The position numbers and the translations under genes are program-made. Under the pieces are notes generated by a model. It was not told the origin of the DNA, did no database searches, and saw nothing but the letters and a program-made list of their open reading frames with translations. From an uncultured virus (IMG/VR IMGVR_UViG_3300048503_000037) (taxonomy: Duplodnaviria; Heunggongvirae; Uroviricota; Caudoviricetes), in IMG/VR virus record IMGVR_UViG_3300048503_000037: a stretch of 64,000 nucleotides of DNA, one strand, 5' to 3'. The number at the start of each line of letters is the position of its first letter. The first letter of the stretch is position 1. Positions 2,752-56,783 of this stretch are shown in pieces.

Positions 2752-2990
2752 GTAATCGCTGGGCCTCCTCCTGCCGGGGCAAGCAACGGCATAACTCCGA
2801 GCGCAAGGCCGACGCCGCGGCCAAGGCTTCGCAGATCATATACGGGGTCGAGATGAACAGCTACCTCTGTGGGTTTTGCCACAAGTGGCACGTCGGCAAC
2901 ACCTACGCCCGCAACGGCAAGGCGGCCAGGCGGGAGCGGGAAGAGGGCGACGAAAATAATTCGCTTGACAAAGCGAGTTTGATTCTCTAG
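2748..2990 (+). CDS. hypothetical Zn-binding protein
   Basis: YLCGFCHKWHVG motif; ATGA coupling. Confidence 0.6.
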   Translation: MSNRWASSCRGKQRHNSERKADAAAKASQIIYGVEMNSYLCGFCHKWHVGNTYARNGKAARREREEGDENNSLDKASLIL

Positions 2991-3019
2991 GATGGTTTGC
3001 GATATGAAACTTTCGCAAA
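2965..3019 (+). promoter_or_regulatory. sigma70 promoter with operator-like inverted repeat
   Basis: TTGACA(2965)-17-TAGGAT(2988); TTTGCGA-N10-TCGCAAA at 2996-3019 spans the HTH start codon. Confidence 0.65.
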
Positions 3020-3267
3020 TGAAACCCGGCAAGCGCATCTCAGTGACCGCGCAGAGACCCACCAAGACGCGGCTGCTAGTGGACATCCAGGGCATGAGGG
3101 AAAGCAAGGGCGTCACGATCCGGCAGGTGGAGAAGGTCATCAAAGTCAGTAATGCCACGCTCTGCCAGATCGAGCACGGATGCACCCCCAGGCTGGATAG
3201 TGCGCTCAAAATCGCAGCATTCATCGAACTGCCCATTGAAAGCATTTGGGCACTGAAAGGCAAGTGA
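3004..3267 (+). CDS. XRE-family HTH transcriptional regulator
   Basis: RESKGVTIRQV...VSNATLCQIEHG..PRLDSALKIA; exact start uncertain. Confidence 0.8.
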   Translation: MKLSQMKPGKRISVTAQRPTKTRLLVDIQGMRESKGVTIRQVEKVIKVSNATLCQIEHGCTPRLDSALKIAAFIELPIESIWALKGK

Positions 3268-7430: not shown

Positions 7431-9322
7431 AAAGTTTGCATTTGTATAACTGGCTTTCTCATGCGGACAACCTGCTTGAATTTGAAAAGCTAGTTTCCAT
7501 TCGTGGAGAGAACGGAGCTGGTAAGTCCAGCATCGAGCAAGCCCTTGAAATGCTTTTCACGGGCCGCAGTGCATCCACCCAAGACAACGGCAGCGGTTCC
7601 CGCGACCTCATCCGGCGCGACCAGGACAAGTGCGCCATCACCGCCGAGATCATGGATAAGACTCTGCTCGGCACGCGCACCGCGAAGATGCGCTGCTCGG
7701 TAACCGAGAAGTCCGGCCGCAATATCATCATCAAAGATCCCGACGACCCAGCGTGGACCGGCTCAGAGTTCCTGGCGTCGCTCGCCATGAAGCGGGAGAT
7801 ACTCGACTGCCTCATCAATGGCCGGTACTTTGTCGAGATGGACCACGCACGGCAGAAGAAGCTCCTGGCTGGCATCATCCTGCCCGCCACGGCAAAGTGG
7901 GATGATTGGGTCGAGGGCGCCTTCAATCAGTGCGAGCTGCGCGTGGACTGGAGCCTCAAAGCTTTCGACGTGATCGCGCTGGCCTACGAAGCGGCCTACG
8001 ACGAGCGCAAATTGGTCAACCGGCTTATCAAGGAATGGCGGGAGCCGGAGGCGGTGGCGGTCCAGGAGATCGACGCCCATGCCATCCGTACCCGGCTGGC
8101 AGAGCGGCAGACCCAGCGTATCGCGCTGGCTATTCAGAAGAACACGACACTCGGCCAATGGCAGCGCGCTCACGACGCCCGCGGCAAGATCGGCGGGAAG
8201 ATTCAAGGTTTGGAGCTGCGCCTGGCCGCCGAGCAGTCCAAGCGCGCCGATGTCGCCAAGGGTGAACTGTCCAAAGCTGCGTTCAAGGAAGCAACGAAGC
8301 TGGCCGCCGCGGCCGAGAAGGGCAAGAAGATCGAGGCCGACATTCAGGCCAACAATGCCGCCCTGGCCGAAGTCCGGCGGACGCTGGCGAAGTTGAACGA
8401 TGTCGGCGAGGCCGGAACTTGCCCGACATGCACCCAGCCTGTGACCGATGCGGAGTTCGAGAACATCACTGCGCCGTTCATCAAGCGGCAAGATGAGTTG
8501 CTCAAGGCCGAGCGCGATCTCCAAGACGCCCGCAAGTCCCTCGGCGACTACGACGGCGCCGCCCGCGTTCTGGCCGACCACGCCCAGGCCGAGAGGAACC
8601 TCGCTCTGGTAGACGAGCACATTGCGGGCATCGAGAAGGACATTGCCGACCTCCAGAAAGAGCAGGCAGAGGCCGGCAACGAGGACACCCAGCCCGACAC
8701 GGCGGAGATCGACAAGCAAATTGCCGACCTCGACGGTCGCATCGAGAAGGGAAATGCCGCGCTCACGGCAGCCATTCAGGCCGACAGTGCTCGCGAGGGA
8801 TACGCCAAGGCCATGGAGGCCAAAAAGAAGCTCGACGCCAAGCAGGCCCTTCTGGAGCGCTTGGTGGAGTACTTTGGGCCGAAGGGTGTACAGGCTAAAT
8901 TCCTCAACGAGCACATGGGGGGATTTGAGGGCAGCATGAACAAGGTTCTCGACAAATGGGGGTTCCAGGCCAAGCTCCAGTTCGACCCCTTTGCGTTCAG
9001 CCTCATGTTCGCCGGCAAGGACAAGGTCTACAATCTCCGCACCATCTCGAAGTCGCAGAAGCATTCGTTCTCGATCGCGTTTCAGGTGGCTCTGGCCAAG
9101 GTGAGCGGGCTTAACTTTGTCGTGGTCGATGAGGCGGATGTCTTCCTCGACGCCAACCGCGGGAAGTTGTACCAAGCGCTGGACGGGGCCGGGTTGGACC
9201 AGGTGATCGTGCTCCAGTCCGACAGCCGGCGCGAGATCCCGGCCAAAGCTGGCAGGGTGTTCTACATGCTCTCGCTGGACCGCAGCGGAGAAGTGCCGAC
9301 CACGAGAGTGGAGCGTCTCTGA
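7421..9322 (+). CDS. Rad50/SbcC-like SMC ATPase
   Basis: Walker A GENGAGKS, coiled coils, zinc hook CPTC, Walker B VVVDEAD. Confidence 0.85.
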   Translation: MFVKSLHLYNWLSHADNLLEFEKLVSIRGENGAGKSSIEQALEMLFTGRSASTQDNGSGSRDLIRRDQDKCAITAEIMDKTLLGTRTAKMRCSVTEKSGRNIIIKDPDDPAWTGSEFLASLAMKREILDCLINGRYFVEMDHARQKKLLAGIILPATAKWDDWVEGAFNQCELRVDWSLKAFDVIALAYEAAYDERKLVNRLIKEWREPEAVAVQEIDAHAIRTRLAERQTQRIALAIQKNTTLGQWQRAHDARGKIGGKIQGLELRLAAEQSKRADVAKGELSKAAFKEATKLAAAAEKGKKIEADIQANNAALAEVRRTLAKLNDVGEAGTCPTCTQPVTDAEFENITAPFIKRQDELLKAERDLQDARKSLGDYDGAARVLADHAQAERNLALVDEHIAGIEKDIADLQKEQAEAGNEDTQPDTAEIDKQIADLDGRIEKGNAALTAAIQADSAREGYAKAMEAKKKLDAKQALLERLVEYFGPKGVQAKFLNEHMGGFEGSMNKVLDKWGFQAKLQFDPFAFSLMFAGKDKVYNLRTISKSQKHSFSIAFQVALAKVSGLNFVVVDEADVFLDANRGKLYQALDGAGLDQVIVLQSDSRREIPAKAGRVFYMLSLDRSGEVPTTRVERL

Positions 9323-17172: not shown

Positions 17173-18714
17173 TTACCGATGTATCTGTGCTCGATTCAGC
17201 GACGGACGACCCATCGTAATAGGCGCGCCCTTCTTCTCGTTCTCCCGCTCCATCCGGTGCCGGGTGACCATGATGGACCGCTGATCCACGCCAGCCGCAA
17301 TGAGTGCCTGTATCTTCTCCTCGGTGACGATCTCATCGGGCTTGCGGTCGCCAGTTAGCCAGGTGTTGGTATAGAGGTCGCAGTCGATGCAATCGTCTAA
17401 CTCGTCTCCCTTGATCTTGAGGATGGCCCCAGGGCGGTCTGGGTCATGCTTGCGGCTAACGGCGGCCTCAAAGCTGTTCGGGGTAAGGTCGGTGTAAACA
17501 AATTCCCCGCGCGTGAGCCTTCCAGCGAGAGACTGAGCATTGCCGATGCTATCCTTGGCCGCGCTCATGAGAGTTAGCCCGTACTGGTCGAAGACCTCTT
17601 GGATGATTTCTCGGTTGCTCTTGCCGGTGCCGGTGTGGGCATCCATGGCCGGGTCGCAGTATCCGGTGATGATGCGCGTCCGCTTGCCGCCGATCTCACG
17701 CTCAAGGAACTTTTTGGCGATATGGGGCGCGTAATCGCTGGAGTACATCTTCCGTTCGATGTCCTCGCCGATCTTGAACATGCGATTGGCTTCATTCAGA
17801 AAGTAAAGGCCCGTCGCCGCCGCCGATCCAGACATGCCGTAATCCATGACAATCAGGTGCAGATGCCACCATTCTTCACGGCACTCAGAGTAAGGCAGGA
17901 TGTAACTCTCGTTGAGGAACGGGAAGAATGCTCCCTCTGTATGGCACCAGCAGCCGGCGATCAGCTTCTTTTGAATGTCGGCTGTCTGCGACATCAGCAT
18001 GGCGAGCTTGCGCTCATCGTAGGCTGGATTGTCTTTGAGTAGCGCTGGAATGAAGGCCGTCGTCATCATGACGGGCATCAAGTCTTTCTTCCATGTGGCG
18101 CCAGCGTAGACCGCCGCAGGCTTCACGCACCGCTCAGGATGGCAGACTGGGCATTCACTATTCAGGAACACATGCCGCAGCCAGGGCGTCGAGGGGTTCG
18201 CGGTGAGCCTCACGCGATCTCTGAGACCGTACTCTGTCGGGGTAGACACCCATGGCAGCAAGGAGCGGACGCGCTCCTCCGTCTGAAACTGCGCTTCATC
18301 AATGCCCAGCCAGGAGATAGGCTTGCCGGTGTAGAGTTCAACGTCCTTGTCGCTGGCCATGTACCCCAGGCGCATCATGGCGCCGGAGGGGAACTTCCAG
18401 AGCTTGCCGCCGTCGGACTTCCGGCCGCCCAAGGGCGAGTAGATGCGCTCCATCTCGTCCATGAGGTTGGTCATTTCGGTGTAGGACTTGCGGAGCAGAA
18501 TGCCGCGGAACCGGGGGTTATCGTACTCTTGGGCGGAGTCCGCCACCAGCCAGTTCGACTTGCCGCCGCCTGATGCTCCACCATACAGCACAAACTGCGC
18601 GCGGCTTTCGATGGCTGTGAGTTGCGGGGAACTGTTTGGAGCCCACCCACTGACCTCCGTAACATTGGCAGGGAGCGGCAGGAGGCCGCGATCTTCAAGA
18701 AGGATCAGGCCCAT
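17173..18714 (-). CDS. terL: terminase large subunit
   Basis: Walker A YGGASGGGKS, Walker B LGIDEA, LTANP, nuclease MDYG and DD..D. Confidence 0.9.
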   Translation of the reverse strand: MGLILLEDRGLLPLPANVTEVSGWAPNSSPQLTAIESRAQFVLYGGASGGGKSNWLVADSAQEYDNPRFRGILLRKSYTEMTNLMDEMERIYSPLGGRKSDGGKLWKFPSGAMMRLGYMASDKDVELYTGKPISWLGIDEAQFQTEERVRSLLPWVSTPTEYGLRDRVRLTANPSTPWLRHVFLNSECPVCHPERCVKPAAVYAGATWKKDLMPVMMTTAFIPALLKDNPAYDERKLAMLMSQTADIQKKLIAGCWCHTEGAFFPFLNESYILPYSECREEWWHLHLIVMDYGMSGSAAATGLYFLNEANRMFKIGEDIERKMYSSDYAPHIAKKFLEREIGGKRTRIITGYCDPAMDAHTGTGKSNREIIQEVFDQYGLTLMSAAKDSIGNAQSLAGRLTRGEFVYTDLTPNSFEAAVSRKHDPDRPGAILKIKGDELDDCIDCDLYTNTWLTGDRKPDEIVTEEKIQALIAAGVDQRSIMVTRHRMERENEKKGAPITMGRPSLNRAQIHR

Positions 18715-19332: not shown

Positions 19333-22300
19333 CAGATGACGCCCTTTCCGGATGTCGTGGCTGGGGCTGTGTCCGTCTGCCCCATAGCTTTATCGAAAGC
19401 ATCGTAGAGCTTCTCTCGCTGCTCGTCGTCAGCCACTTTGTCGATGTCCTTCTCGTGGCGCTCCAGAATAGGCTCCATGGCTTCACGTTCGTCGGCGGTT
19501 GCCTTGGCCCATACATTTAGCATCTGCTCAATGGTGAGGTTCTTGACGGCGCGCGCGATAGGCTCCTCGTCGGACTCTCGCTCAGCTTTGGCCACATCCT
19601 TGTCGGTGAGCTTGCCCTCGTCCACGTACTTGTCGATCTGCTTTTGGTCAACCTCGTCCTCTCGGTACATGCGGACAACCGCGTCGAGGGCGGCATAGTG
19701 CGCGGCCTGGTCCTGCGTTTTGGTGCCCGGTGGCCGGTTCTCCATAGAATACTGCCGAGCCTGGTTGATGGCTTCGCTGTTCTGGATAAACGCCGGGGCG
19801 GGCTGGAATCCAAGTTGGCCAAGCGCCACGTCGCCGGGGTGCTTCTTTGCCTCTTGCAGCATCTCTTGCAGAGATGGCCCGGCCCCGCGTTGCTGGAGTA
19901 ATTTCGCAGCGCCAGAGACAGAGAACGGGACCGCCTGACTTCCAGCCCAGCGGGAGAACTGGCCAAGTTGCGCCATGAGCGGGTCGTCTTTGTGCCGGAT
20001 CTCCGTTCCGTAGAAGTCGCGGTTGTTGATGGCCTCGGCGGTCGCTTCCCAAATGGGAGCCATCTTGTTGAGCGCTGTCTTGATGGGGTCGTGCGCGAAC
20101 GAGAAAACATCCTTCATGTAACCGGGAATGGAGTGCCGTTGGCCATTGGCTGTTTCGGGGTAAAAGTAATCCTTCCACGTCTGCGGGCGCTTGCTAGTCC
20201 ATAGGTAGCTGAGGATGCCGCCGAATAGCGCGCTCACCAAGGGAAGGGCGATACCGAAGGCCAGCCGCGGCGTGACTCGTGGAATCTGACCCGAGGCGGC
20301 GCGTCCAGCTTGGCGCCCTACGTCGGCCACTGCGCCGCCCAGTTCTCGGTAGCTTCCGAAGTTCCAGCCTACGGAGCGGGTGGCAAGGTTGAGGGCATCG
20401 CGGACACCCTTGTGCCAGAAGAGATTGTCATAGACCACCTGCCCGAAACGGTTGTCGATCGAGTCCCAGGCTTCCTGCATCCTCGACCGCGTGAGCCCTT
20501 CGCTCCAGCCCTGCTTTTGGGCGCTGTCGAGAATGTCGTGGGCCATGCCGTAAAAGGCTCCGAGTTTCATCCGTGGCACATAGAAGTCCATGACGGGCGC
20601 GACCGCCGCATGGAGGATGGCTGCGGGGATCGGCGTGAGGCCTTCCAGTACCGCACCATTGCGCCATGCGTTGATAACCTTGTCGAGCGGTTTGAGTTCG
20701 ATGGTGTTCTGGCGAATACGGCCGCCGGCTGATGCCAATGCTTTCGCTTCCTCGGCCATCTTTGCGTAGCTTCCGGGGGTCAGATATTCGCGCATGAGCC
20801 GAGAGCCATTGACCATCGTATGCAGCAGCGACGGAAAGACAGATGCGCCCTTGGCGAGCGAGAATCCCGCGCGCAGGGGTTTGCCCTCAGCGAGCTGCTG
20901 AATGCCCAGGGCAACGTCAGAGGTCGCAGCATTGATGCTCGTGGTCGAAGCGTGGAAGGCCGAGATGCCAAGCTGGAGAGCGTTGAGGTTCTGATTGGCC
21001 CAGTTGAGCGTGTCGTAGATGGTAGAGCGGCCAGCCATGCCGCGAGAAACAAAGTTGTTGAAGATGCGGGCGGCCTCGGCGGGAGCATAGTAGTGGCCGC
21101 GAATGTAAAGATGGCCATCGTCGTCATAGTTCTGGACGGTCCCGATGCGGTCGTCGAGTTGGGTCCAGCCCTCGGGCGGCTGCTTGCCAATGCGGACCAT
21201 CTTCGCCGTGCCGGAGTCCTGCATCATCTTCAATGTTTGGTGACCCATCAAGAACTGCGCCATCTCCGCGTACTTGGTCAGGAACGAATCGACAGGGTTC
21301 CAACTGACCGGCTTGAATCCAAGGTCGATGCCGTCCTGCATGGTCGGGATGGTGCGCTGCTTGAGGAATGATCCTTTTCCCGCGAACGGCTTCTTGCCGG
21401 TGATGAGCGCCTTGATGGTGGCCGATACCTGCGATGGGCGCTCCCAGATATGCGGGAAGTAATTCTCGATGTAGTCTTGCAGGACTTCGGGCTTGAGCGC
21501 CTGGAGTTGGGCCGCGCATGGAGTCGAACGCGCCCTTGAAGAGATTGGCGAGAGCCTGGTCCCTGGGTGCCAGCGTGTCCACCGTGCCGGACTCGACGGC
21601 GTTCCAGAACTTCATGGAGTCGTCGCGGGTACGGGTGCGCCACTCCTTCGATGCGTCCTTGAGTTTGTGAATGGCGATAGCGACCTTACGGTCCATCTCG
21701 CCGCGCGTCTCGCGCATCATAGCGCGCTGGGTGTCACCGTGGCCTGGGGCGTCGGAGAGCCAGTCCGCCATGCGGTCGCCGATGTCGGGGAATAGGCGGT
21801 TGAAGAGTTGGGGATCAGCAAAGCCGGTGTAGAACGTGCTGCCAAGGTCGGACTTCTTTTGCTTGGCTTCGGCGGCGGTATTCTCGGCTTCGGCGAGATT
21901 CTCCCGTGCTGCCTTGAGTTTGTCTTGCAGGAACTCTCGATCTTCCGAGCGCGACCGCCTTAAGTCCTGCTCAGTCTCTTCGATCTGGGCCTTATGGAAG
22001 GCTATGAGCTTGTCTGGTTCTAACTCCTTCGGCGCGCGCGGGACGCTTCTCTTGGCCGTTCCGGGGATGGTATGTGTCGGCTCGGCGAGGCGGACGGCGC
22101 GGACTTGAGCAGCCGGTCGATGGCCGCCGGGGTGTTCTTGACGAGGAACTTGCCGTCGTTCGGAACCTCAATGCGGATGAAGTCGTTCGGGAACTCGGCG
22201 GGGCGCGCGATGGCCTCTCCGATGCTATCAGGAGCTTTCTTGACGAGACTCTCCCAATCCCAGCCGCGCGCGTACTTCGAGGTCCATGCGTCCTTCACTG

Positions 22301-25300
22301 GCTCCAGCGCCTTGATGAAATACTCGGCCTGGTACTTCCACTTATTCTTGTCGGGGTCAGTCACGAGCTTCTCTTCAGGCTCGGTGAGTGGCAGGCCGGA
22401 AGTCTTGACCGCATGTTCCGCGTCGGCAATGCGGCCTTGAAGGACAGCGACTTGCGGATTCGTTTTTCCAAAATGACTTCTGTCTTTTCCGAGCATTGCT
22501 GCGAGTTCCGCTTTCCACTGCTCTAACTCGCTCGGCGGTTCTGTCCCCGGCGCAACGGCGGAGGCGTCTGCTTTGACTGCGGCAACCGGAACTGGTGCGG
22601 ACTTCGGCGCGATTTCAGCAACGGGTGCTTTCTCTGGAACGGGCCTCGCTTCCATCGCCTTGAGATCGTTCGGCGTCATGGCCGTTGCGCCTTCTCTGAC
22701 AGCCTTTGCAAGCTCAGCGCCGCGCCCTCTCAAATCTTTATCAGCTTCCAGTTCTTTTTGGGGTCTGTTCCAGTTGCCGATGTCAGCCAACCGGACGGCT
22801 GCAATCTTCGCATTATCGCGGTTGCTGAGTCCTCTGAGAATTGCCAGCCCACTTGGGATATGAGAGACTTCCCAATCGCTTCCACTGCCGCGCTTGTTGG
22901 AGAACGTTCGCTCCGAAATCGCTTTGTGAACTATCAGACCCCCGAGCGTATCCCCCTTAACTTCTGGGAGTTCGCCTTTCGGTCCTCTCGGAATCATCGT
23001 ACCGGGCGTAAACTTTGCGCGGGCGAGACGGTCGCGCATCTCGGTGGTGAATCGCTCCTGGAGTTCGGCGGTGTGCGCTCTCTCCATCTCCTCGGTTTCG
23101 CGCTTGGCTTGCGCCTCAGCATCGCGGTCAGCCCTGTCTTTGGCGCGGCTGTCGTACTCGTCCTTGGCTGCTTTGTTGAATGAGGTCCAGCGGTCCTGAG
23201 TACCGATACCAGAGCGGTCGAGAACACTCTCCCATCCCGCCTTGGCAAGATCGTGAATCTTGCCGATCTTCAACCGTCCATTGTCCCACGTCATCTGATA
23301 GCGCCCATCGCGGATGATTAGCTGGTCGCCCTCAATGATGGCTGGCTTGTCTTTCTCCTGGTATGTGCGGAGGGTTCGCTCGATGTCCTCGCGCTGGCCG
23401 CCGCGTTCCGGCTGTGCAGAGCCGATGGTGATGTCTGAGGAGTTCAGTTTTCTTGCCGCCGCCTTCATCGCCCTTCCGAACGGGTCGTCCTCCGGGTTCG
23501 TGTACTGGATGAACATCGCTCCCTGCATTTTCTTTCTCCTTCCCTTCAATCGACTGCGCATAGTCGTGCTCCGTCTTGGAAACGACCCACTCTGTTCCGT
23601 CTGCACCGTGGATGCGATAAGACGGAACCTTGATGCCAGCCTTTTGCTGTGCGCGGAGTTCGTTGTACTTGATGGTGGTCGGATGGCTCTGGTTCCCGGT
23701 TGGCACTCCGGCCCGGCGCATGGCTCCCAGTTCGCGGTCCAACTTTCTCTCTGCCGCGTCGTCCTGGACCTGCTTGATGGACGTGGTTCCCCCGCCCGCC
23801 ATTCGTTCGTCGATGATCTGGCGACGGGTGAGAACTTGGCCGGATTCGCGCCGAACCTGGGTGTCGAGGTACTTGTCGGCCTTCGCTTGCTGGGCACGCT
23901 TAAACCGTTCAGTGAGGCTCTCTGGCTTCTTGGGCTGTGCCTCTACCTTCGAGGATTCAATGGGTTTAGATTCACCGCCGCCTATTTGGTCCGTACGCGC
24001 TGGGCGGTCCATGACCTTTGCGCGCGCGGCGGTGGAGAACTGCGGCTTGGAAATTCCTTTGAGTTGGACCTCTTCGGAGTTGCCATTGCGGTCAGTGATC
24101 GAGATTGATTTGACGGTGAACTTCTGTCCGCCGGTTTCAGTCATGCCGGTGTAACGGTGGGCCTCCTCCGGCTTGACGTAGGCCAGTGTGGCGTGAGGTT
24201 TGTACTCAGGGAACGACCGCTCGACAAAGTTGCCGTGCTTGTCAATCTCCTTTTCCATGCGGCGCAGATCAGCGGACTCCACCGGGACCACAATCGGCGC
24301 GGCCCCATCGCTGTGCTCGCTGGGTGGGAATGCCTGAGTCTTGCCAAGCGTGGCCTCGAATGGTGCTTGCTTCTCCAGATAGGCTCGGATGCCTGCGGTG
24401 TCACCGCCATCGATGCCATAGCGCACAGTAATATGCGAATCGTTGACCATCCCCTCGCCCGCGAGGTCTTCCGGGAGAATGGCCTTGCGCATACGGGCGA
24501 GCGCCTTCCCTGCGTCGCTGCCGGGGGGGATGTCGGCTTGGGTATTGCCGTGCTTGAATTTTGGTTCTACTTCTTTCCCGCGATTCTCTTCCCCGCCCGT
24601 GAGTTGATCAGGTTTCTTTTCCGGCGTTCCTTTCTGTACTTTTTCTGGTCCTCCGCCGAATCGCTCATTAGCCTCGCGCATCAGGACGACGTAGCCGCGA
24701 TCAGTCCCTTCAAGGTACTCGGCCTCTGTTGGCAAGTCTGATTCTTTAGCAAGATCCCACCAATCCCGTGCAACTATGGCCGATTTATCAGGACGGGAGC
24801 CTATGGTATCCCCTGGCTTCATGCCGCCCCAATAAGCGCTGAGTTGTTTCTGGAATCGTTCTTGCACGGGACCAGGGAGTTTCCAGTAAGTATCTTCCCA
24901 GAACTTATCGGAGATTGCGCGCGGTGATTCCCCGTTCTCAATCATGTCATCGAGGACACCTTGCCCCTGCTGGTCCATAGCAGCACGACGCAACCACGCG
25001 CCGACTATTTGCTCGTACCGCTCTTTTGGGCGATTCTCTTCCCCGCCCGGCTTGGCTTGGACGGCGCTTTCTCCGGCAGGTTGAGACCCTTGCTCGACCG
25101 GTTGAACTCGTCCACCGTCTTCGCGCCCACCTTGTCCCGGTTGGCGTTCATCCACTTGCGCTGCTGGTTGCTTTTGAATGGCACCTTGGGCCTCCTCTGG
25201 TCTACCGTTTGCAGCATTACCGGCAGGCTGCTCTGCGCTGATCCGCTGTTCATGTCCAGGCTCCTTCGCCAGAGTCCCGTCGAGATCCACGTACAATGCC

Positions 25301-32257: not shown

Positions 32258-35200
32258 CTATCTACTCTCCCCAGCCAGTCGGCCCTGGAACATGGGACTG
32301 ATAAACACGCAACTGTACTTCATCGAGAACCAGGCGTCCGCAATCGCTCCGTTGGTGTAGCGCACTCTCCACCGCTCATTGAGCTTGCTGGGGGTGTTAC
32401 GGCTGATTCCCTTGGTGGGATTCAGTTCAAGCTGGATCGGCTTAAGCGGGACATACCATCTTGGCTGTGGCGTACCGGCTCCCCAGTCCGTGATCCTGCG
32501 CGCGCCAGCAATGAACGATACAAAGAGGCTGCCGTTGCCGCGGGCGTTCATGTTGAGACCTTGGAGCTTGCAAAGAGTCATCATCTCCTGCGCAGCCACG
32601 CTTTCGTACTGGCAGTCGATCCCGGCGCCATTGTCGTTATAGATGCCCGGCGAGATGGCCTGCACCGTTCCATCAGGTCCAGAGGAGGCAATCAGGAACT
32701 GCGAGATGTACTGGCGCGCGTATTCTTCGGTGGTGTCCACCGGACCCTCATCTGGGGTGGGCTCGTCCGTGATGGTCCGATAAACCCTGCCGCCGACAAA
32801 TCCAGCAATGCTATCCACTGAGTATTTGCGGCACTGCTCGATGGTTATTTCTTTGCCAGAGTAGCGCGAGAACAAAAGTGGGTTGTTCCAGCCTTCCTCG
32901 TAGTTGAGTGTAAGAACCACATTCGGCACGGTGCTGTTACCGACAGGGAAGCCCATTTTGACTTCATGCTCCTCGGCATCAATCGCGCACCAGATGGTTT
33001 GCTGGGCTGCCCAGTTGATCGTGTTCCACCAGCGCGGCAGTTCCTTTGAGACCAATTCAGGGTAGGAGCTTTCGTACTTATAGATACCACTCGAATGCAC
33101 GAAAATGATGAACTGGCCGCACACATCGACCGCGCGCGGCCCGCACGGTCCCACCTTGGTCCAGCGTTTCGTGACTACCCATGTTGCTGGGTCCGCCGTC
33201 GAGGGATTGATTTCAAAACCAGACCGCTCACGGAAGGAATAGAGAACGCCTTGAAACTCGCGCACGCACCAGGCGCGCTCGCCGTCGTCGGTTCCCACGG
33301 TGATGATGCTGGTGTCGCCGTAGTAGCTTTCAGGATCTGCCGCCAGCGAGACCCAGTGGCTGGAATAGAAGCCCGGCACGCCAGTCTGGAAGATGCGGTC
33401 AACGGTCGGGGAGTAGTAGATGTCAACGCATTGTTGAGGCTGAATGACGCGCAGCCTGTCAGTGATGTCGATGGAGCCAATCAGAAACTCATCGGTGAAG
33501 TTGACCGTGGCTGTCGAGGTTCCATTCGGGAAGGCCGTCGCCGTCATGGGGATGGCGTCCGAGACGGTTGACTGCGGGATATAGAAGAAGGGTCCAGCGC
33601 TCAACCCATCGGCGACGGAGAAGCCAGCAATCACGTTCTGAATGTAGTTTGGCCCGTTGGGAAGGTTGAAGAGGGATAACTCCCAGCCGTTCTCATCCAC
33701 GATATAACTGAAGGTCGCAGCCTGCGTAAAGCCAGAGATGGTGTCGAAGTCATCCTCATAGGCGATGCAGAGCCAGCGATAGCCCTGGGTGCCGTTGGGG
33801 CCTCCCGTGGCCGTGTCCTGCGCGATGTTGCCAGCAGGCCCGGTAGTGTTGACGGTTGGCGGTGGAGGACCGACCACGGTATTTGTAATCGTGACGGTCG
33901 CGCCAGTGCCGAATGTGCCAATGAGAGCGAAGTTACCGGGAGGCGGAAAGGTGCTGCCATCGAAGGTGGTCCCGGTTGGCACATCGCATTCATAAAGGTT
34001 GATGCCGGTGACAGCATAACCCTGCGGAAACTGCGTAGTGATGACGATCGAATCATCCAACTGTGTGTCGATGACGGAATTAGCCGGACCTGGGAGCGTC
34101 TCGCCGATGGCGTTCACATAGGTCTGGAGGATGTAGACATCCAACCCGGCCGCAAATACTCCGCCACCGCCCGCGCGCGCGATGACAGGCTCGATGTCTG
34201 GAGTGGGAAGTTGGCCGCCCGTGATACGGGCTGTATTGGTGGTCGGGGGAGCCTGGAAGGAACCAGCCGCGGCGACGCCATAAGTTCCGCCGAGAGCGAC
34301 AGGTGCAGCATTCGCGGCTTGATAGGTGGATAGCTGTGGCGCAGGCGTTGCCGTGGCGACAATGGCGACATAAACATTTGCCGCGATGGGAACGTATTGT
34401 GACGGCAATCCCTGCACCCAGCCGGCCATCGACGCAAGAGCTGGAATCGTGACGTTGACGGTTGTAGCTCCGGCAAGTGTGGTGATCTTGCTGGAGAGGC
34501 TTGGGAGGCTTTCTCCTTGGGCGTTGACGAGCGTGATGGCGACATAGACATCCTGCGCGCCCGCGATCGTTCCACCGCCAGCCAGGGCCAGCGCCGGGGC
34601 ATTCGGAGCAGCAATGCGGTTCGCCATAACCGGCGTCTGTTCTTTCCACGTCACTCCGCCGTCTACAACAGTCCCGCCTTCAGTGAGAGGCCACACTGGC
34701 TGTACGTTCGCTGTCGTTCCGGCCACGGTGCAGATGTAGAGATGGCCATTGCCGACAGCCACAGTAACCCCGCTCTGGAGTTGCGACGGGGTGCAGCATT
34801 CCCCCACCAGCACCTGCGCGCCGGCGTACCAGCCGAAGCCCACAGGCTTCATGCCGTAAGGAAGGAGTTGCTTGGTCGAGAGGTCGTATGCTGCCGGGAA
34901 AGCTGTGGGGGTGAGGAGGTTGGAGAATCCCATCCAAGCCCGGTTATAGGCTTGGGTGCCGATCATGTGGGAGTTGGCGGGGAGAGTGACCAGCGGCCCG
35001 GTTATGCTCGTGGTACGACCTGTTCCGGATGGATTCTCGATCTGGAAGGCGCCGGCATAGTCGTAGAGCAATATGGCCTGAAAGTAAACCTGAGTCGCGG
35101 TCTCCGGGGTGAAGGCGCACCCCAAGAGGCCCGTGATTGGACTCTGGTTCTTTCCTTGGATTGCGGTCTGAATCCCGTATCTGGTCTCGACCTCGGTAAG

Positions 35201-35323
35201 ATTGAACCGGCAATTCTGCGACAGGGCAGCACAGCCCATGGGCAGATTGGTGGGGTCATCCTCATCTACGAGGCCAAGCCAGCGACTGAACTCTACCTTG
35301 GTCGCTCCGCCGTAATTGGCCAT
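32258..35323 (-). CDS. tail nozzle / DNA-stabilisation protein with inserted Ig/FN3-like modules
   Basis: 1021 aa, beta-propeller-like C-half (VGPCGPRAV..FVHSSGIYKY); position after the adaptor. Confidence 0.65.
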   Translation of the reverse strand: MANYGGATKVEFSRWLGLVDEDDPTNLPMGCAALSQNCRFNLTEVETRYGIQTAIQGKNQSPITGLLGCAFTPETATQVYFQAILLYDYAGAFQIENPSGTGRTTSITGPLVTLPANSHMIGTQAYNRAWMGFSNLLTPTAFPAAYDLSTKQLLPYGMKPVGFGWYAGAQVLVGECCTPSQLQSGVTVAVGNGHLYICTVAGTTANVQPVWPLTEGGTVVDGGVTWKEQTPVMANRIAAPNAPALALAGGGTIAGAQDVYVAITLVNAQGESLPSLSSKITTLAGATTVNVTIPALASMAGWVQGLPSQYVPIAANVYVAIVATATPAPQLSTYQAANAAPVALGGTYGVAAAGSFQAPPTTNTARITGGQLPTPDIEPVIARAGGGGVFAAGLDVYILQTYVNAIGETLPGPANSVIDTQLDDSIVITTQFPQGYAVTGINLYECDVPTGTTFDGSTFPPPGNFALIGTFGTGATVTITNTVVGPPPPTVNTTGPAGNIAQDTATGGPNGTQGYRWLCIAYEDDFDTISGFTQAATFSYIVDENGWELSLFNLPNGPNYIQNVIAGFSVADGLSAGPFFYIPQSTVSDAIPMTATAFPNGTSTATVNFTDEFLIGSIDITDRLRVIQPQQCVDIYYSPTVDRIFQTGVPGFYSSHWVSLAADPESYYGDTSIITVGTDDGERAWCVREFQGVLYSFRERSGFEINPSTADPATWVVTKRWTKVGPCGPRAVDVCGQFIIFVHSSGIYKYESSYPELVSKELPRWWNTINWAAQQTIWCAIDAEEHEVKMGFPVGNSTVPNVVLTLNYEEGWNNPLLFSRYSGKEITIEQCRKYSVDSIAGFVGGRVYRTITDEPTPDEGPVDTTEEYARQYISQFLIASSGPDGTVQAISPGIYNDNGAGIDCQYESVAAQEMMTLCKLQGLNMNARGNGSLFVSFIAGARRITDWGAGTPQPRWYVPLKPIQLELNPTKGISRNTPSKLNERWRVRYTNGAIADAWFSMKYSCVFISPMFQGRLAGESR

Positions 35324-51252: not shown

Positions 51253-54200
51253 TTATGGACAAGGTATTTCGGTGCCGACAAGAATGCCGCCGCTTAGCTG
51301 GAACCGTCTGCAACTTCCATCTACCGTGTCTTTCCAGATCACACCATTGATAGCTGAGTCGCTAAGAGTAATATCCCCCTGTGACCGTACCGCTGGTGCT
51401 GCTGCGCCGGAGATTGCTTTACCTTTGAGCGCAAACAGCATCAATCCACCATATCCGTGTATGGATAGGAGACAGATACGCCTTTTTGCACGCCCGCTGC
51501 ATAAGCCGGGGCTGATGACATTGACGTGTAAATCGAGGAGGTATCTGGCGTAGCAAATTTACCTAAGTATGTGAGGATACCACACTTATACTCCCATACG
51601 CTGCAATCAACCTATCGTTTGGTTGAGTCGTGGTCAAGGTTGGCGTCGTAGCTGTCCATTGGATTCCGGCACCAAGTGGATTGTATGTCGTCAACATTGC
51701 AACACCACTACCATCCACACAAGAGGATGATGCAGCCACGTTGGTGTACTCAGCTACGCTCATACCATTATCCCACAACCTTATATGCCGTTGCGGAAAC
51801 TGTAATTGTACCACCGTTGACATTGCAAGCAACTGCTGACCATACATTGTGGTCACCGATAGAGATTTACACTTGCTGCTGTTGTGTAGGTGTTCCCTAA
51901 ATTGTCTGTTACACCCGGTAATGCCCCCTCAGCATTTCCGCAATTTACAACGATGGCATTTCCAGCCGTCACCGGATTGGGGAGAGTCCCTGTACCATCC
52001 GAACTTCCCTGCACAAATACTGGCTGCAAAATGCCAGTTGTGTTCGCGCTGAAAATGGCGGCGGCGTTGTTAGCATCGGGAGCTACAACAGTCTGCGTGC
52101 CGTTAAACGTCTGGCTCTGATTGTTCAGCGCCAAGTCTACAGGATTGGTTAGAAGATTCAGTGCACCGTTGATTGAAACATTGTGCGCTGACAGGTTCGC
52201 ATCTGGCATCAGCGCGGTGGCTGCTGTCGAACCGGAGACTAGGATTTCTGTCTGTATGTTAGAGGGATCGTGGACCGTGCATACATCGCCGCTATCGCCG
52301 CTTAGGTAAGGTGTAAGCACTAAATTCTTGTCAAAACACAGCGCCGAGTCACCGGGCATATCCGTTACTAGTTGATCCACGTACGGAGCGTAAAATTGCA
52401 GAGCCGAAGACCGCCTTGGTATACTCGCTGGAAAAATTGTAGTTTGGCAGAGTGATCCCAAACGATGCCACAGGTCCGGTAACCCGCAGAGTTGTTAACT
52501 GTGCTGACTCGCATATTCAGCATTGCTGCCTGATCCGAGCTAACCACCTGCTGTATGTCGCCTAAACCAGGCTGGATGGTGTTTGAGATGGTGGCAGTGG
52601 AGATTGCAGCCTCTAACCGCGATACTCCAGGATCGGTAAGATGCAGGATTTCGCAATTGGTCGCGGGGTTGTCTGGATAGTCACAGAAAAAATACCTATT
52701 AGGATAAAAGGGTAACAATGCGCCTGGATCAGCAAAACTGTTCCAATAATATCCGCAAATGTTGCTTCCCGCTGTCTGACCGGGTTGTCCTGCTACTCCT
52801 GCTGTAGTGCAAACCGCTGGGTTGGAATTCAACGATGTCTTGGACTGTTGACTCAACCACGTGCTGATAGTCTGTGTGCAGTTAGCAGCTACAGGAGCAT
52901 AAACACTGCTTGGAACTGGTAGCAGTGTTTCCGCCGTGTAGAGATAACCCTTGGCGTGAACCTGTTGCATATACGAGAAAAGATTTGCTTCGGTGGTTGC
53001 CTGTGCGGTGCCGTTAAGACAATCCTGCGATCCAAGCTGTGATACAAGGATAGTGCTACCCGGCGTGACGCTTGGAAAGTTGGGATTCGTGGAAAAGGTG
53101 GCAGCTTCATTCGCGGCGCTATCTCCACCTGCTGATTTTTGCACGATGGTTACACCAGCATACAATGGATCATCGCGCTGCTGTTGCGGAAGCGCATATT
53201 TGCAGGACTCATATCCTGCCCCGGTCGAGCCATCGGGTACTCCTGTAGATGTAGCGTCAAAGGTGAATTGATTGGTTCCGGGCATCCCTGTAACTGTCGC
53301 CACAAAACCGTTGAGTGCTGTATAAGAGCCGCCAAAAGTAGAGAGCAGCAGCGCATTATTCACGACCTGATTGTTGGTGTTAGCCTCTGTGCATGTTGCG
53401 ATATGGCTTGAAATGGTGCAGCCTGAGATTGCATCTTCACTCAATGCTCCCACTTGGCAGCTACCCGCTACAATCTGCCGTGAGTCGCCCATGTCCACAA
53501 GCGTTTTTCCTGCCAGTGGGCTGACATACCCACCCCCGCCGCCAGTGCTTGCAATGCTGACTGTGCTTCCAACAGTGCTGACCGCTATGCCTGCCCCGGC
53601 TGCTATCGTTACTGCAGTGGTGACGCCGTTGACGCTGGGTACGCCCCCGCCGCCGCCAGAGCCGCAGTCGGAGCCTGTGCCCGTTACAATTCCATTGTCA
53701 TCCGTGTGTAAGCACTGATGCAGCCCAGAGCCAGCCGCCTGTTGAGGCAAGCTGATTTGGCTGTGATGGATGTCTACAATCTTGTTGCCAAAGCCGTCGT
53801 AGAGTCCATAGCCATCGTTGTTATACCCGTTCGGCTTGATAACACCGCCCAACTCAGGTGTAATTGTGTTGCTCTGGTTCAGGAAGTCAATCTCACCGGG
53901 AATTCCAGTTGCCGGGTTGAAGGTGATCGCTTCACCAAATTGGTTTTGAATCTGAGCCTGAATGTTCAGGTTCTGCACAGGCTGAGCGTTCACTGGGGCA
54001 GACGCGCCGATTTCGCTCCATGCCGTCCCGATTGGAGAACCGGCAGTGCCATAGGTAGATAGCCCTTGGAAATTCCACAAGGGCTGCAAGATTGGGCTTC
54101 CGCTCCAATACACCTTGTTGATGTTCGCCCAAGTGCCACCCGAGAACTCCATCGCGCCTTCCTGCACAGACTCTACACGGTATGGATCCGAAACGAGCGT

Positions 54201-56783
54201 GGTGCATCCTTCGCAATCGAAGTTGAATACAGGCGACGGCCCGAGAGACCCGTAAAAGATCGGACGGTACAAATACTTGCCGTTAAGGTTGGTGAGGGGT
54301 GATCCTCCAGCGTTGCGGTTATCGCGGGCGAGATTAAGATACCCAAAACCCGTGATGCCTTTGTAGCACATGGCGTTCGCGCCCTGCGGCGTGCTAAAGC
54401 TCGGTCCTGTCTGACGCTGTGCAATGCCCATTGGGGTAGCGCAAGTCTCAGGCATATCCACGGCGTCTCCGGTAAAGTCGGAGTGCCACACAGCCTTGTC
54501 AAACCAGGTGTCCAGGTTGGCGTACACCGAGTTATATGCCGAAGGCTCGACTACCATGTTGTCAAAACCTTCAAAATCGTTGATCCCACCCGCGCCAGCC
54601 GGGAAGTCTGAGCGGTGGCTCCATGTTCCACCATTAACGTAGGGAGCGCCTGAGTCAAACTCCAGATTGCTAACTTTCAGTCCAAGATCGGTGGACGCGC
54701 TCAAGATACCGATACCTGTTGCAAAAACCATGTCGTGCTGGTTTCCCTTGTTGGCGTTGTTGGTTACCCACAGCCCGATAAATCCAGAGTCTATTTCCAG
54801 ATTACCCACGTCCTCTCGGCTATACGGTCCTCCGAACATTGCTGATTGAGTTTGCAACACGCCTGGAGTAGGGGTATCAACAGTCACCCCATCCCACGTG
54901 CTAAAGACGGAGGCACCCTGTAGCGCTGACCCGGTCGGGGCGAACGTAGATGCTCCTGATACCAGAGCTACCTGAATCGGGATAGCCGGGGGGATAAGTG
55001 GGGATAGGTTGGTACACTGAGCATCAAACTTGGACGTGCCGGAATCCCAGCAAGCGAAGGGGCCAAAGACAATAGTTGGGGCAACAGAGCCGCATCCTGT
55101 CGGAGCGGTCGTCCACACGGCAGAGGAAATGCCGCCAGAGGAGTTCGATGAGGCTGTACCCACGCCGACGAAGTTGGTTCCAGCATAGCCGCCGACACTG
55201 GAGCAAGTTGAGCCGCCAGCATTGAAAGCGTGAATCGCAAGGAAATTAGTTTGGGAAGTTGGGTGTCCGCCGCCAGCATTGGTGATGGTCGGGGTTCCGC
55301 AGGTGCCGCCAGTCAACGAGCAGGTTGCAGCTTCCCCGTCTCCGCCAGTCGGAATTACGTTTGGAGCCACCGTGCCAGTTAGACCAAAACCGGCATAGAC
55401 GATTGTGACAGGGTTCTGCACGTGCCCGCTGGAGTCAGTTGTAACTGTAGCGAACTCACCACCGCACGGACCAGCGTAAATAGTTGGGCATCCAAGCCAG
55501 CTAGAAGCACTCTGTCCAAAATCCAGAATTTCTGTATTCGAGGCGGGGTAGTTTGTACCCCCGCCAGTTACGGTGCAAGCGTTAAGATGTCCGGATACAG
55601 TGGTACAAGAGACCGTCGCTCCAGAGCCACCTGCGTTAGTCTGATAATCGCCTGAGTCTTGAGCAAGACCACCATAGGCGTAGACAACATTTCCATTAGC
55701 GTCATGGTCATAGGTGGCAAGCATATAGTGGCCCGCCAGCCAAGCACAAGTTCCGCCGTTGCCCTGGACAACTGCTGTGTAACAAGCATGGGCAGCGGGG
55801 GTGTTATCCGTGCCCCAGATTCCGTACGCGGTGTCAGTCGTCTGGAACTGACGATCCACTGTAAAATGGGTGGCGTCAATAACCGACGCAATTTTGGCGG
55901 TGTTAGCGGTCGTGATGGAGTTCGCAACGAAAGGCAAGCCCCCCGTCCAAGCTCCTGAGTTTTTGTTAAATGAGATGTATTTGCCCACGTCGGCAGACGT
56001 GAAATTCCAAGAGTAACCGTCAAGTGAGCCTGTGACGTTAACAGCATATCCCCCGCTAGACCAGCCAAAGCTCATGTATCCAAAGGATGGCTGCAAGTCG
56101 GCGATACCACCGTAGCAAAGGATGTTGCTGTAGACCGATGCCGCCGCGCAGTTAAGCGTGGGTCCAAGCTGATTCCATTGATACGTGCCGGTAACGTTCG
56201 AACATTGGAATATTTCTGACGTATTGGACGTATAGAAAGTACCATTGTTTGCGATTGCCGAGCACGTCGCCGAGGGCGCTCCTACTCCAACAGACCACTG
56301 CGGAACCCCGAGGTTTGTCGCCGCGCCATAGGCCGTGGTCGCACCTGTGCCACCACCGGGTATCGAAATAACACCGCTGATTCCTCCTGACTGCACGAAG
56401 TTCGTCCCGTCGCTGACCACCGTGACAGTGGTGCCATTTGTAATCGTCACACCGGTTCCAGTCACGCCGATAACCTGAATAGACTGGCTTCCGGTGGTAG
56501 CGTTCTCGATGGTGAATTGGAAGCCTGCTGCCTGGGGGGCCACAAGACTTCGTGTTGCGGTGAGCGAGACCGAGCTAATCACTTTGATAAAACCGGCGCT
56601 CATTTCGGGATAGACCATCGTGTGATTTGCGTCAGATGTGAATGAAATAACTCCCGGATTGCGATTCGGGAAGACGCCGCCCGAGCCGATGTTGCCGGTC
56701 AATGGGATCTGCGGTGCTGGAACCTGCGCGAGGGCGCAAGGGGCCAAAATGGCGAGAATCAACAGTTTCGACAGATTTTTCAT
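51253..56783 (-). CDS. signal-peptide-bearing tailspike/adhesin with beta-helix-like and SGNH esterase domains; C-terminal part frame-broken (51853-52461, 51563-51856, 51253-51444)
   Basis: MKNLSKLLILAILAPCALA-Q; NILCYGGIAD..GTDNTPA; MGDS..G..G..LH; many Cys. Confidence 0.65.

Follow-up and report, generated by a model that had tools for sequence, protein, structure and literature searches.

Analysis of a 64,000-nucleotide stretch of DNA from an uncultured tailed phage (Caudoviricetes; IMG/VR record IMGVR_UViG_3300048503_000037), hereafter called the window, indicated that a small open reading frame (ORF) on its minus strand, at 25184..25005 or perhaps from 25253, is very probably a real protein-coding gene that is nested wholly within a giant polyvalent-protein gene and read in the +1 frame relative to it. 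The same bases thus seem to specify two proteins, and comparison of related loci suggests that this nesting recurs in dozens of unrelated phages.

Inspection of the minus strand revealed the arrangement to which an earlier, sequence-only reading of the window had drawn attention. A Shine-Dalgarno-like (SD) site, AGAGGAGG at 25198-25191, stands 6 nt 5' of a GTG (25184-25182) that opens a frame of 59 codons closed by the TAG at 25007-25005, and the deduced peptide is identical to the 59 residues of that reading when the GTG is read as Met. The peptide starts V(M)PFKSNQQ and carries SKGLNLPEK followed by a basic tail. The giant frame crosses the small ORF as a linker, as had been claimed: the ORF segment 25836..23332 of 834 residues, on the same strand, is stop-free here and reads GAIQKQPAAQVDERQPGQG across the small ORF, and the giant-frame stretch over it, PEEAQGAIQKQPAAQVDERQPGQGGREDGG, is rich in Gly, Glu, Gln and Pro and also in Ala. 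When a strong start was defined as AGGAG, GGAGG or AGGAGG 5-16 nt upstream of an ATG or GTG followed by at least 40 open codons, only three were present in the 8.8-kb giant-gene region (25253, 25184 and 23528), so that the combination of signal and ORF at the small gene exceeds chance. The first two of these starts are both in the frame of the small ORF, and the third is the second site proposed in the sequence-only reading.

The start at 25253 (ATG 25253-25251, with AAGGAG at 25266-25261) would give an 82-residue form beginning MNSGSAQSSLPVMLQTV and was chosen by public gene callers for the proteins P0003, P0005 and P0013. This ATG and its SD are conserved in the window and in the related loci L001, L002, L004, L005 and L006, and the upstream extension (MNSG...) is missing from the wider family, whose members begin at MP. 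Since the upstream ATG and SD are kept in six close relatives, the true start of the small ORF is ambiguous between 25184 and 25253. The structure predicted by AlphaFold for the window peptide, of modest confidence (pLDDT, the predicted local distance difference test, 70.5), has helices at residues 6-14, 16-19 and 21-31, with a hairpin over residues 6-31 and a disordered tail.

The sequence-only reading had made its claim depend on conservation of the alternative frame or its ribosome-binding site among relatives, and both were found to be conserved, as was the start codon. Six close copies, in the window, L005, L006, L004, L002 and L001, contain an ORF of 52-61 codons in the identical relative frame, each with a GGAGG-type site 5-9 nt before an ATG or GTG, and the SD persists in all six although the residues encoded over it vary in both frames. 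Identity of the peptide to that of the window is 54% in L004, 53% in L002 and 40% in L001, and M1, P2, S5, Q8, R9, K32, G33, L36, P37 and E38 are invariant in the six-copy alignment (A1). The giant-frame reading of the same DNA is of low complexity in all close relatives. A homologue of 75 residues that is 89% identical (P0005) is listed at NCBI as a hypothetical protein of a metagenome-assembled genome of Terracidiphilus sp., which is a weak hint at an acidobacterial host.

Database searches bore out the statement that the peptide belongs to a recurring type of small phage protein. The profile of the six close copies (A1) matched 767 proteins of 28-107 residues at E<=0.01, none of them with a Pfam domain, including clearly standalone-type proteins of 43-60 residues such as MPFKSQAQRR...KGxKLPEK with a Lys-rich tail. 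A 28-member profile matched 3,339 of 1.84 billion cluster representatives (50% clusters) at E<=0.001 and 690 at E<=1e-10. The members of this uncurated family follow the pattern MP-x-x-S-x-x-Q...KG-x-x-LPE with a Lys/Arg-rich tail over a total of about 40-65 residues. The Met-Pro start, Ser5 and Gln8 are invariant both in A1 (6 sequences) and in A2 (28 sequences) and are present in the window peptide, as is the motif K-G-x-x-L-P-E/K, which lies some 30-38 residues in, before the Lys/Arg-rich tail; identity of the window peptide to the 27 other members of A2 ranges from 31 to 57%. Among 145 newly listed best representatives, 119 start with MP; 64 of the 145 are longer than 110 residues (117-1,022), and with three exceptions these long proteins carry the module at residue 1. 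The proteins P0176, P0164, P0209, L042 and L012 have the MP-module first, followed by NUDIX and/or DUF6321, or by DUF5661, and from this domain order look like small polyvalent-type proteins led by the MP-module.

The motif recalls K-S-x-x-Q ... G-L-P-E, which we take to be the look of DUF3008 (PF11450). Scans with PF11450 did not confirm this, giving no match among 111 members (6 at E<=10, 17 at E<=0.1 and 88 at E<=0.05), and no consistent Pfam family emerged across these 6, 17 and 88 members. In the ESM Atlas the peptide falls among viral hypothetical clusters of about 50 residues, with a DUF3008-labelled cluster at 0.85 that serves as a lead only. Six of the 28 relatives match phrog_1375 and five match phrog_16759, both families without assigned function, and the window peptide has no PHROG match at E<=1, these two included. 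Longer or fused members contain DUF5661, DUF6321, one NUDIX and a glycine-zipper according to Pfam and PHROGs, from which no function is derivable.

Genomic context was determined for 160 IMG/VR loci. Searches with two subfamily alignments, A3 and A4, supplied 80 each, namely the 80 best out of 265 confirmed matches in one case and out of at least 439 in the other. Including the window, 167 copies were classified, of which 51 are embedded within a same-strand ORF of at least 300 residues, 97 are standalone, 16 are N-terminal and 3 are other, the embedded fraction being a biased estimate because the loci were picked by likeness to the peptide. Standalone homologues, whose existence had been at issue in the sequence-only reading, are the commonest class among these copies. 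The N-terminal copies lead proteins of 138-451 residues. In all 51 embedded copies the long ORF uses the small+2 frame and in none the small+1 frame; about 10 of the 51 are ambiguous, as only the first 26-58 codons of an ORF of about 390 residues overlap. A strict set, limited to ORFs of at least 1,000 residues with at least 250 residues on each side, comprises 37 unique copies with the window excluded. The ORFs of this set range in length from 1,044 codons to 2,704 or more, most of them being cut off where the fetched locus ends, at a GC content (GC) of 0.32-0.65, and the start codon of the small ORF is kept in all 37.

The standalone copies lie near packaging genes: at 12 of 20 loci scanned, a large terminase (TerL) and/or portal gene is no further than two same-strand ORFs away on one side or the other, usually in the order TerL-small-portal or TerL-portal-small. 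A tree of 134 unique 48-residue sequences was poorly supported; on it the embedded state changes 17 times, against 26-36 times with shuffled labels. Embedded copies cluster on this tree and are present in both subfamilies, the number of capture events lying beyond the resolution of the tree. Giant genes from different lineages can for the most part not be aligned with one another, 1,482 ordered pairs giving 102 matches for the N-part and 166 for the C-part. A single giant ORF at locus L121 holds two modules (3479 and 4001), both in its +1 frame, and no start codon is recognisable in the upstream one (PLYKSEAQ...).

The host gene extends over 28136..~19332 on the minus strand, as delimited by its homologues in L002, L005 and L006, where the ORF is continuous, and is followed one gene downstream by the large terminase (17173..18714; phrog_979, E 2.9e-30). 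The 834-residue segment that crosses the small ORF carries a 2H phosphoesterase domain at residues 468-585 (Pfam PF13563, E 6.1e-08). In the IMG/VR relatives the giant gene is a single continuous ORF (L002 at least 2,480 codons, L006 1,963, L005 at least 1,931 and L003 at least 2,419), and its domains include 2H in L001, ART-PolyVal (PF18760) in L006, His_Phos (PF00300) in L024 and GGACT (PF06094) in L051. By its predicted domains and length the host gene is of the polyvalent-protein type, namely very long, multidomain and with enzymatic domains of the conflict type, in ORFs that reach at least 2,704 residues. In the window the giant gene consists of five frame segments (28136-25935, 25938-23386, 23549-22068, 22122-21514 and 21509-19347); 1-base indels relative to L002 and L006 were located near 25938, 23445 and 21513 within otherwise conserved coding sequence, and there is a fourth frame break near 22100, indel nature being assigned for the other three junctions only. 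Other long ORFs of the window are intact, e.g. 52368..56783 and 32258..35323.

The segmentation of the giant gene by indels could mean that there is no true overlap, that is, that the giant frame is untranslated across the small ORF, that the parts flanking it are separate proteins, or that the giant gene of the window is a decaying pseudogene. A stop-free run of 60 codons would be unremarkable at 60% GC, and among 36 standalone copies of high GC there are 9 in which the frame used by the giant genes is open. We regard this explanation as unlikely. In the relatives one uninterrupted ORF runs through the small gene, with a length between 1,044 and at least 2,704 codons and in 24 cases at a GC below 0.47, the part upstream of the small ORF has no stop codon of its own, and a GenBank Elemovirus gene is annotated as one coding sequence (CDS) of 3,694 residues. 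Over the first 45 codons the giant-used frame is open in just 12 of 88 non-embedded copies and, at low GC, in just 2 of 30, while the other alternative frame is open in 25 of 88. Of the two alternative frames, the giant genes occupy the one that is by nature less often open, yet it stays free of stops in them, and the open giant frame is therefore a maintained state.

Comparison of substitutions in the two frames, a check that the sequence-only reading had proposed, showed that it is the small frame which is preserved. Mean pairwise differences among embedded copies at the three small-frame codon positions were 0.45/0.35/0.50, and 0.40/0.37/0.65 among standalone copies by the same measure; the least variable position of the embedded copies is the wobble position of the giant frame. 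The flanks of the giant gene, read in the giant frame as a control, showed the usual codon pattern, with 0.33/0.24/0.54 upstream (16 pairs) and 0.18/0.12/0.37 downstream (9 pairs). Pairs of embedded copies at 70-99.9% identity showed 486 changes that are silent in the small frame and nonsilent in the giant frame versus 172 of the reverse kind, at an expected opportunity ratio of 0.77, in pairs that overlap and are non-independent. A set of only 13 disjoint pairs corrects for this; these 13 pairs gave 175 versus 81 changes, with the identical direction in 13/13 (sign test p=0.00024; binomial test against an opportunity share of 0.434, p=8.5e-16). The giant-frame composition over the small ORF in embedded copies is E 18%, G 12%, Q 11%, V 10% and A 10%.

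Start signals of the embedded copies were also conserved. GGAG or GAGG occurs at positions -16 to -4 in 12 of the 13 embedded copies with a GC of at least 0.47, against a background of 0.089. Embedded copies of lower GC have it in 3 of 24 cases and are A-rich upstream instead, which would reflect SD-independent initiation in such hosts. These patterns indicate that the small frame is maintained by selection and that the giant frame is maintained open in 37 diverged copies, the constraint detected on the giant frame being avoidance of stops.

The same data bear on the possibility that the small gene is a relic, swallowed at the fusion and no longer translated, whose frame survives through recency or another constraint on the DNA. 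Consistent with a relic, locus L007 has lost the core of the ORF while its linker persists, the second copy in L121 is without a start codon, and a motif at the 3' end of the small ORF, described below, is conserved independently of any small gene. However, embedded copies as diverged as 62-68% nucleotide identity keep their starts (37/37) and, when GC-rich, their SD (12/13), and the excess of small-frame-silent changes has the same direction in every disjoint pair. A dead frame, with selection acting on the giant frame, further predicts that the giant frame's wobble position varies most, whereas it varies least, and we therefore consider a relic improbable.

Programmed ribosomal frameshifting, by which the small frame would be entered from the giant frame or would lead into it, with a shortened giant protein or an MP-module joined to the downstream part as its product, is very improbable. 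The module is the N-terminus of many larger proteins and A-runs in Lys-rich tails can be slippery, but in-frame X XXY YYZ heptamers show no enrichment, 10 of 37 embedded copies having one against 24 of 79 standalone copies, the start codon is conserved, and many of the embedded copies examined have a small-frame stop no more than 0-13 codons ahead of the ATG, leaving no room to shift in. It is scarcely credible that the giant-frame peptide (N/D-A-I/V-Q-E-P-S...) is itself the selected element, e.g. a processing site, with the small ORF as its by-product: its translation is recognisably conserved across embedded copies too, but this conservation mirrors the small frame, hundreds of standalone members have stops in the giant-used frame, substitutions spare the small and not the giant frame, and among the loci examined there was no giant gene with the N-A-I-Q-E-P-S motif and a closed small frame.

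Several observations weigh against the interpretation of the small ORF as a nested gene. Translation of both frames is one that we infer from selection and from start signals. In L007, a giant-gene relative, the core of the small ORF is deleted and the linker persists, with a frame of 45 codons at 2960-3100 still open that retains the clade-specific N-extension and the SRAGKRIAQKK end, and in L003 no copy of the small gene was seen; by these two loci, some lineages can do without the nested gene. The frame-broken giant gene means that the full protein may not be made in the window, or that the assembly contains errors. The 3' part of the small ORF, which contains the motif just mentioned, may owe its conservation to the giant frame or to the DNA itself, and so may the upstream MNSG... 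extension. Neither Pfam nor PHROGs gave a function for the window peptide. To these points belong the choice of loci by likeness and the overlap of the 486:172 pairs, both noted above.

If the small ORF is a nested gene, ribosomes would initiate independently at the nested SD and GTG or ATG, which lie at a junction between protein modules of the giant gene. The product would be a basic protein of about 59 residues with a free Met-Pro N-terminus, a short helical hairpin, KG-x-x-LPE and a Lys/Arg tail, and ribosomes on the giant gene would read the identical bases as an acidic, low-complexity linker. Such a linker would tolerate almost any sequence, so that the small frame would set the sequence and the giant frame would only have to stay stop-free. 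The small gene looks like the older partner because the family is mostly standalone or N-terminal, because the +2 frame is normally closed and because the giant protein has a linker of biased composition where the two overlap; the most likely origin of the giant gene is a fusion, by read-through, of the genes on either side of the small one. The order of events, with the small gene first, and the function of its product are both what we infer. That the giant gene grew by read-through had been asserted in the sequence-only reading; this fits the distribution of the family, the closed +2 frame and the linker, but direct evidence of fusion is lacking, as similarity to the parts of the giant gene flanking the small ORF was found in just 4 of 126 non-embedded loci, one of these being the window. 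A need of the family for a free N-terminus would explain why the module is kept as a separate out-of-frame ORF and not as an in-frame domain.

As to function, we propose with low confidence a basic protein associated with the head or with packaging. More doubtful is the idea that the nested gene is the sole element common to otherwise unalignable giant genes for virion cargo, encoding a small basic adaptor that would work only with a free Met-Pro end and for that reason would never occur as an in-frame internal domain, that giant genes were repeatedly built by read-through across it, and that its product could bind the overlapping linker as a dedicated chaperone or packaging adaptor of the giant protein.

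The 3' part of the small ORF contains the 19-nt junction motif mentioned above, GGGCGGGGAAGAGAATCGC (25030..25048, minus strand), which is translated as GGEENR in the giant frame and as RAGKRIA in the small one. A second exact copy is present at 24580..24598 on the same strand, at the next module junction, whereas 0.01 exact copies are expected in place of the two found in the window. The two copies flank a module of about 450 bp, which L005 and L006 do not have at that place, and in L005 and L007 the motif likewise marks the border between modules but is succeeded by different ones; modules may be shuffled by recombination at this joint. The 24598-24580 junction is without a small gene, and the suggestion that the linkers of the giant gene are dual-coding as a general rule does not hold.

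The second site fared less clearly. Seven bases upstream of ATG 23528 (23528-23526) there is an AAGGAG (23541-23536), as had been noted, and the ORF reads MQGAMFIQY.... In L002 this ATG opens a +1-frame ORF of 69 codons (L002 5379-5585) over the linker KEKENAGSDVHPVHEPGG, but in the window a 1-base insertion relative to L002 puts it in frame with the downstream module of the giant gene, as a minus-strand frame of 502 codons starting MQGAMFIQYTNPEDDPFGRAMKAAARKLN. L002 has a diverged paralogous +1-frame copy at 7953-8105 (51 codons, with SD and ATG); the two paralogues are identical at 16 of 21 residues in the alternative frame versus 12 of 21 in the giant frame, and their differences by alternative-frame codon position are 4/3/7. 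The ORF follows the pattern ...Y-T/A-N-P-E/K-DDPF..AMKAAA.KLN. No wider family was recovered, database searches giving 3 near-identical small proteins only, and one of the matches spans the module and not the leader. From these comparisons ATG 23528 as the start of a second nested gene is suggestive but thin.

Cultured phages were reached only by relaxed searches with other members of the family. The phage GenBank collection had no match for the 6.2-kb region (blastn) or for the window peptide (tblastn), and P0114 and P0022 had none at E<=1e-3. A relaxed tblastn search with the family member P0109 gave matches in 68 Flavobacterium phage records. In Elemovirus NC_062743, the one record of the 68 inspected, a +1-frame ORF of 42 codons, MPFKSKAQMK...SLPNKVKKK, is nested at about residue 1220 of gp20, annotated as a 'structural protein' of 3,694 residues (locus L168, NC_062743.1 49920-61004). 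Alignment of this ORF to A4 with hhalign gave a probability of 96.5% (E 9.3e-10), and none of the features annotated in the surrounding 12 kb corresponds to the ORF. The Flavobacterium Elemovirus phages are thus an experimental system for a nested copy. In the cultured cyanopodovirus Prochlorococcus phage P-RSP2 (L169, 7034-6915) a family-like ORF, MPFVSEKQKKYLYANKPNVAAKF, lies between annotated hypothetical genes (tblastn E 0.009) and coincides with no annotated CDS.

Overprinted genes are known from phiX174, in which B lies in A and E lies in D. In phage lambda the spanin gene Rz1 is wholly contained in Rz and read in the +1 frame, at a place where Rz encodes a mutationally silent linker (PMC5295617). 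The present case is alike in that a smaller gene of the same strand has its own start and falls completely within a linker region of a larger gene, shifted to the +1 frame. The two systems differ in several respects: they have no sequence relation; the host here is a polyvalent or virion protein of several thousand residues and Rz is a lysis protein of 153 residues; the embedded gene here comes from a large, mostly standalone family, and it is the linker frame that looks younger; and expression and function of Rz1 are proven, whereas the nested gene here is deduced from sequence. In overprinting generally, one stretch is read in two frames of the same strand, with one frame dominating the constraint (reviewed in PMC8227390). 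Classical overprinting puts a new protein in an old gene, whereas here the small gene would be old and the linker of the long gene new, and in contrast to small phages and viruses the phages concerned here are tailed phages of about 60 kb without obvious size pressure.

Polyvalent proteins of phages and conjugative elements (Iyer et al. 2017, PMC5512222) resemble the host gene in being very long, with shuffled modules and enzymatic effector domains and, to judge by the terminase one gene downstream, in a place beside head or packaging genes. The searched text of that paper does not describe a nested gene ('overlapping' and 'frameshift' 0 occurrences, 'reading frame' 1, unrelated), nor was a description found in the abstracts and matched passages of the other literature searched. 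DUF3008, phrog_1375 and phrog_16759 are small phage proteins of similar length whose function is unassigned. Nested phage genes are already known, and what is new here is a widespread variant with an unusual age relation of the two partners.

The analysis defines a large phage protein family, of thousands of clusters, that has a strict N-terminal requirement, lies beside packaging genes and is without assigned function. As gene callers forbid nested genes, the small gene goes unannotated where it is embedded. With an embedded frame that is favoured by selection, in phages of 32-65% GC, and that would be older than the linker of its host, these loci offer an unusually clean system for the study of proteins that share DNA. 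Polyvalent-protein genes can hide independent genes at the junctions between their modules, a point that matters whenever such a giant gene is to be annotated, split or engineered.

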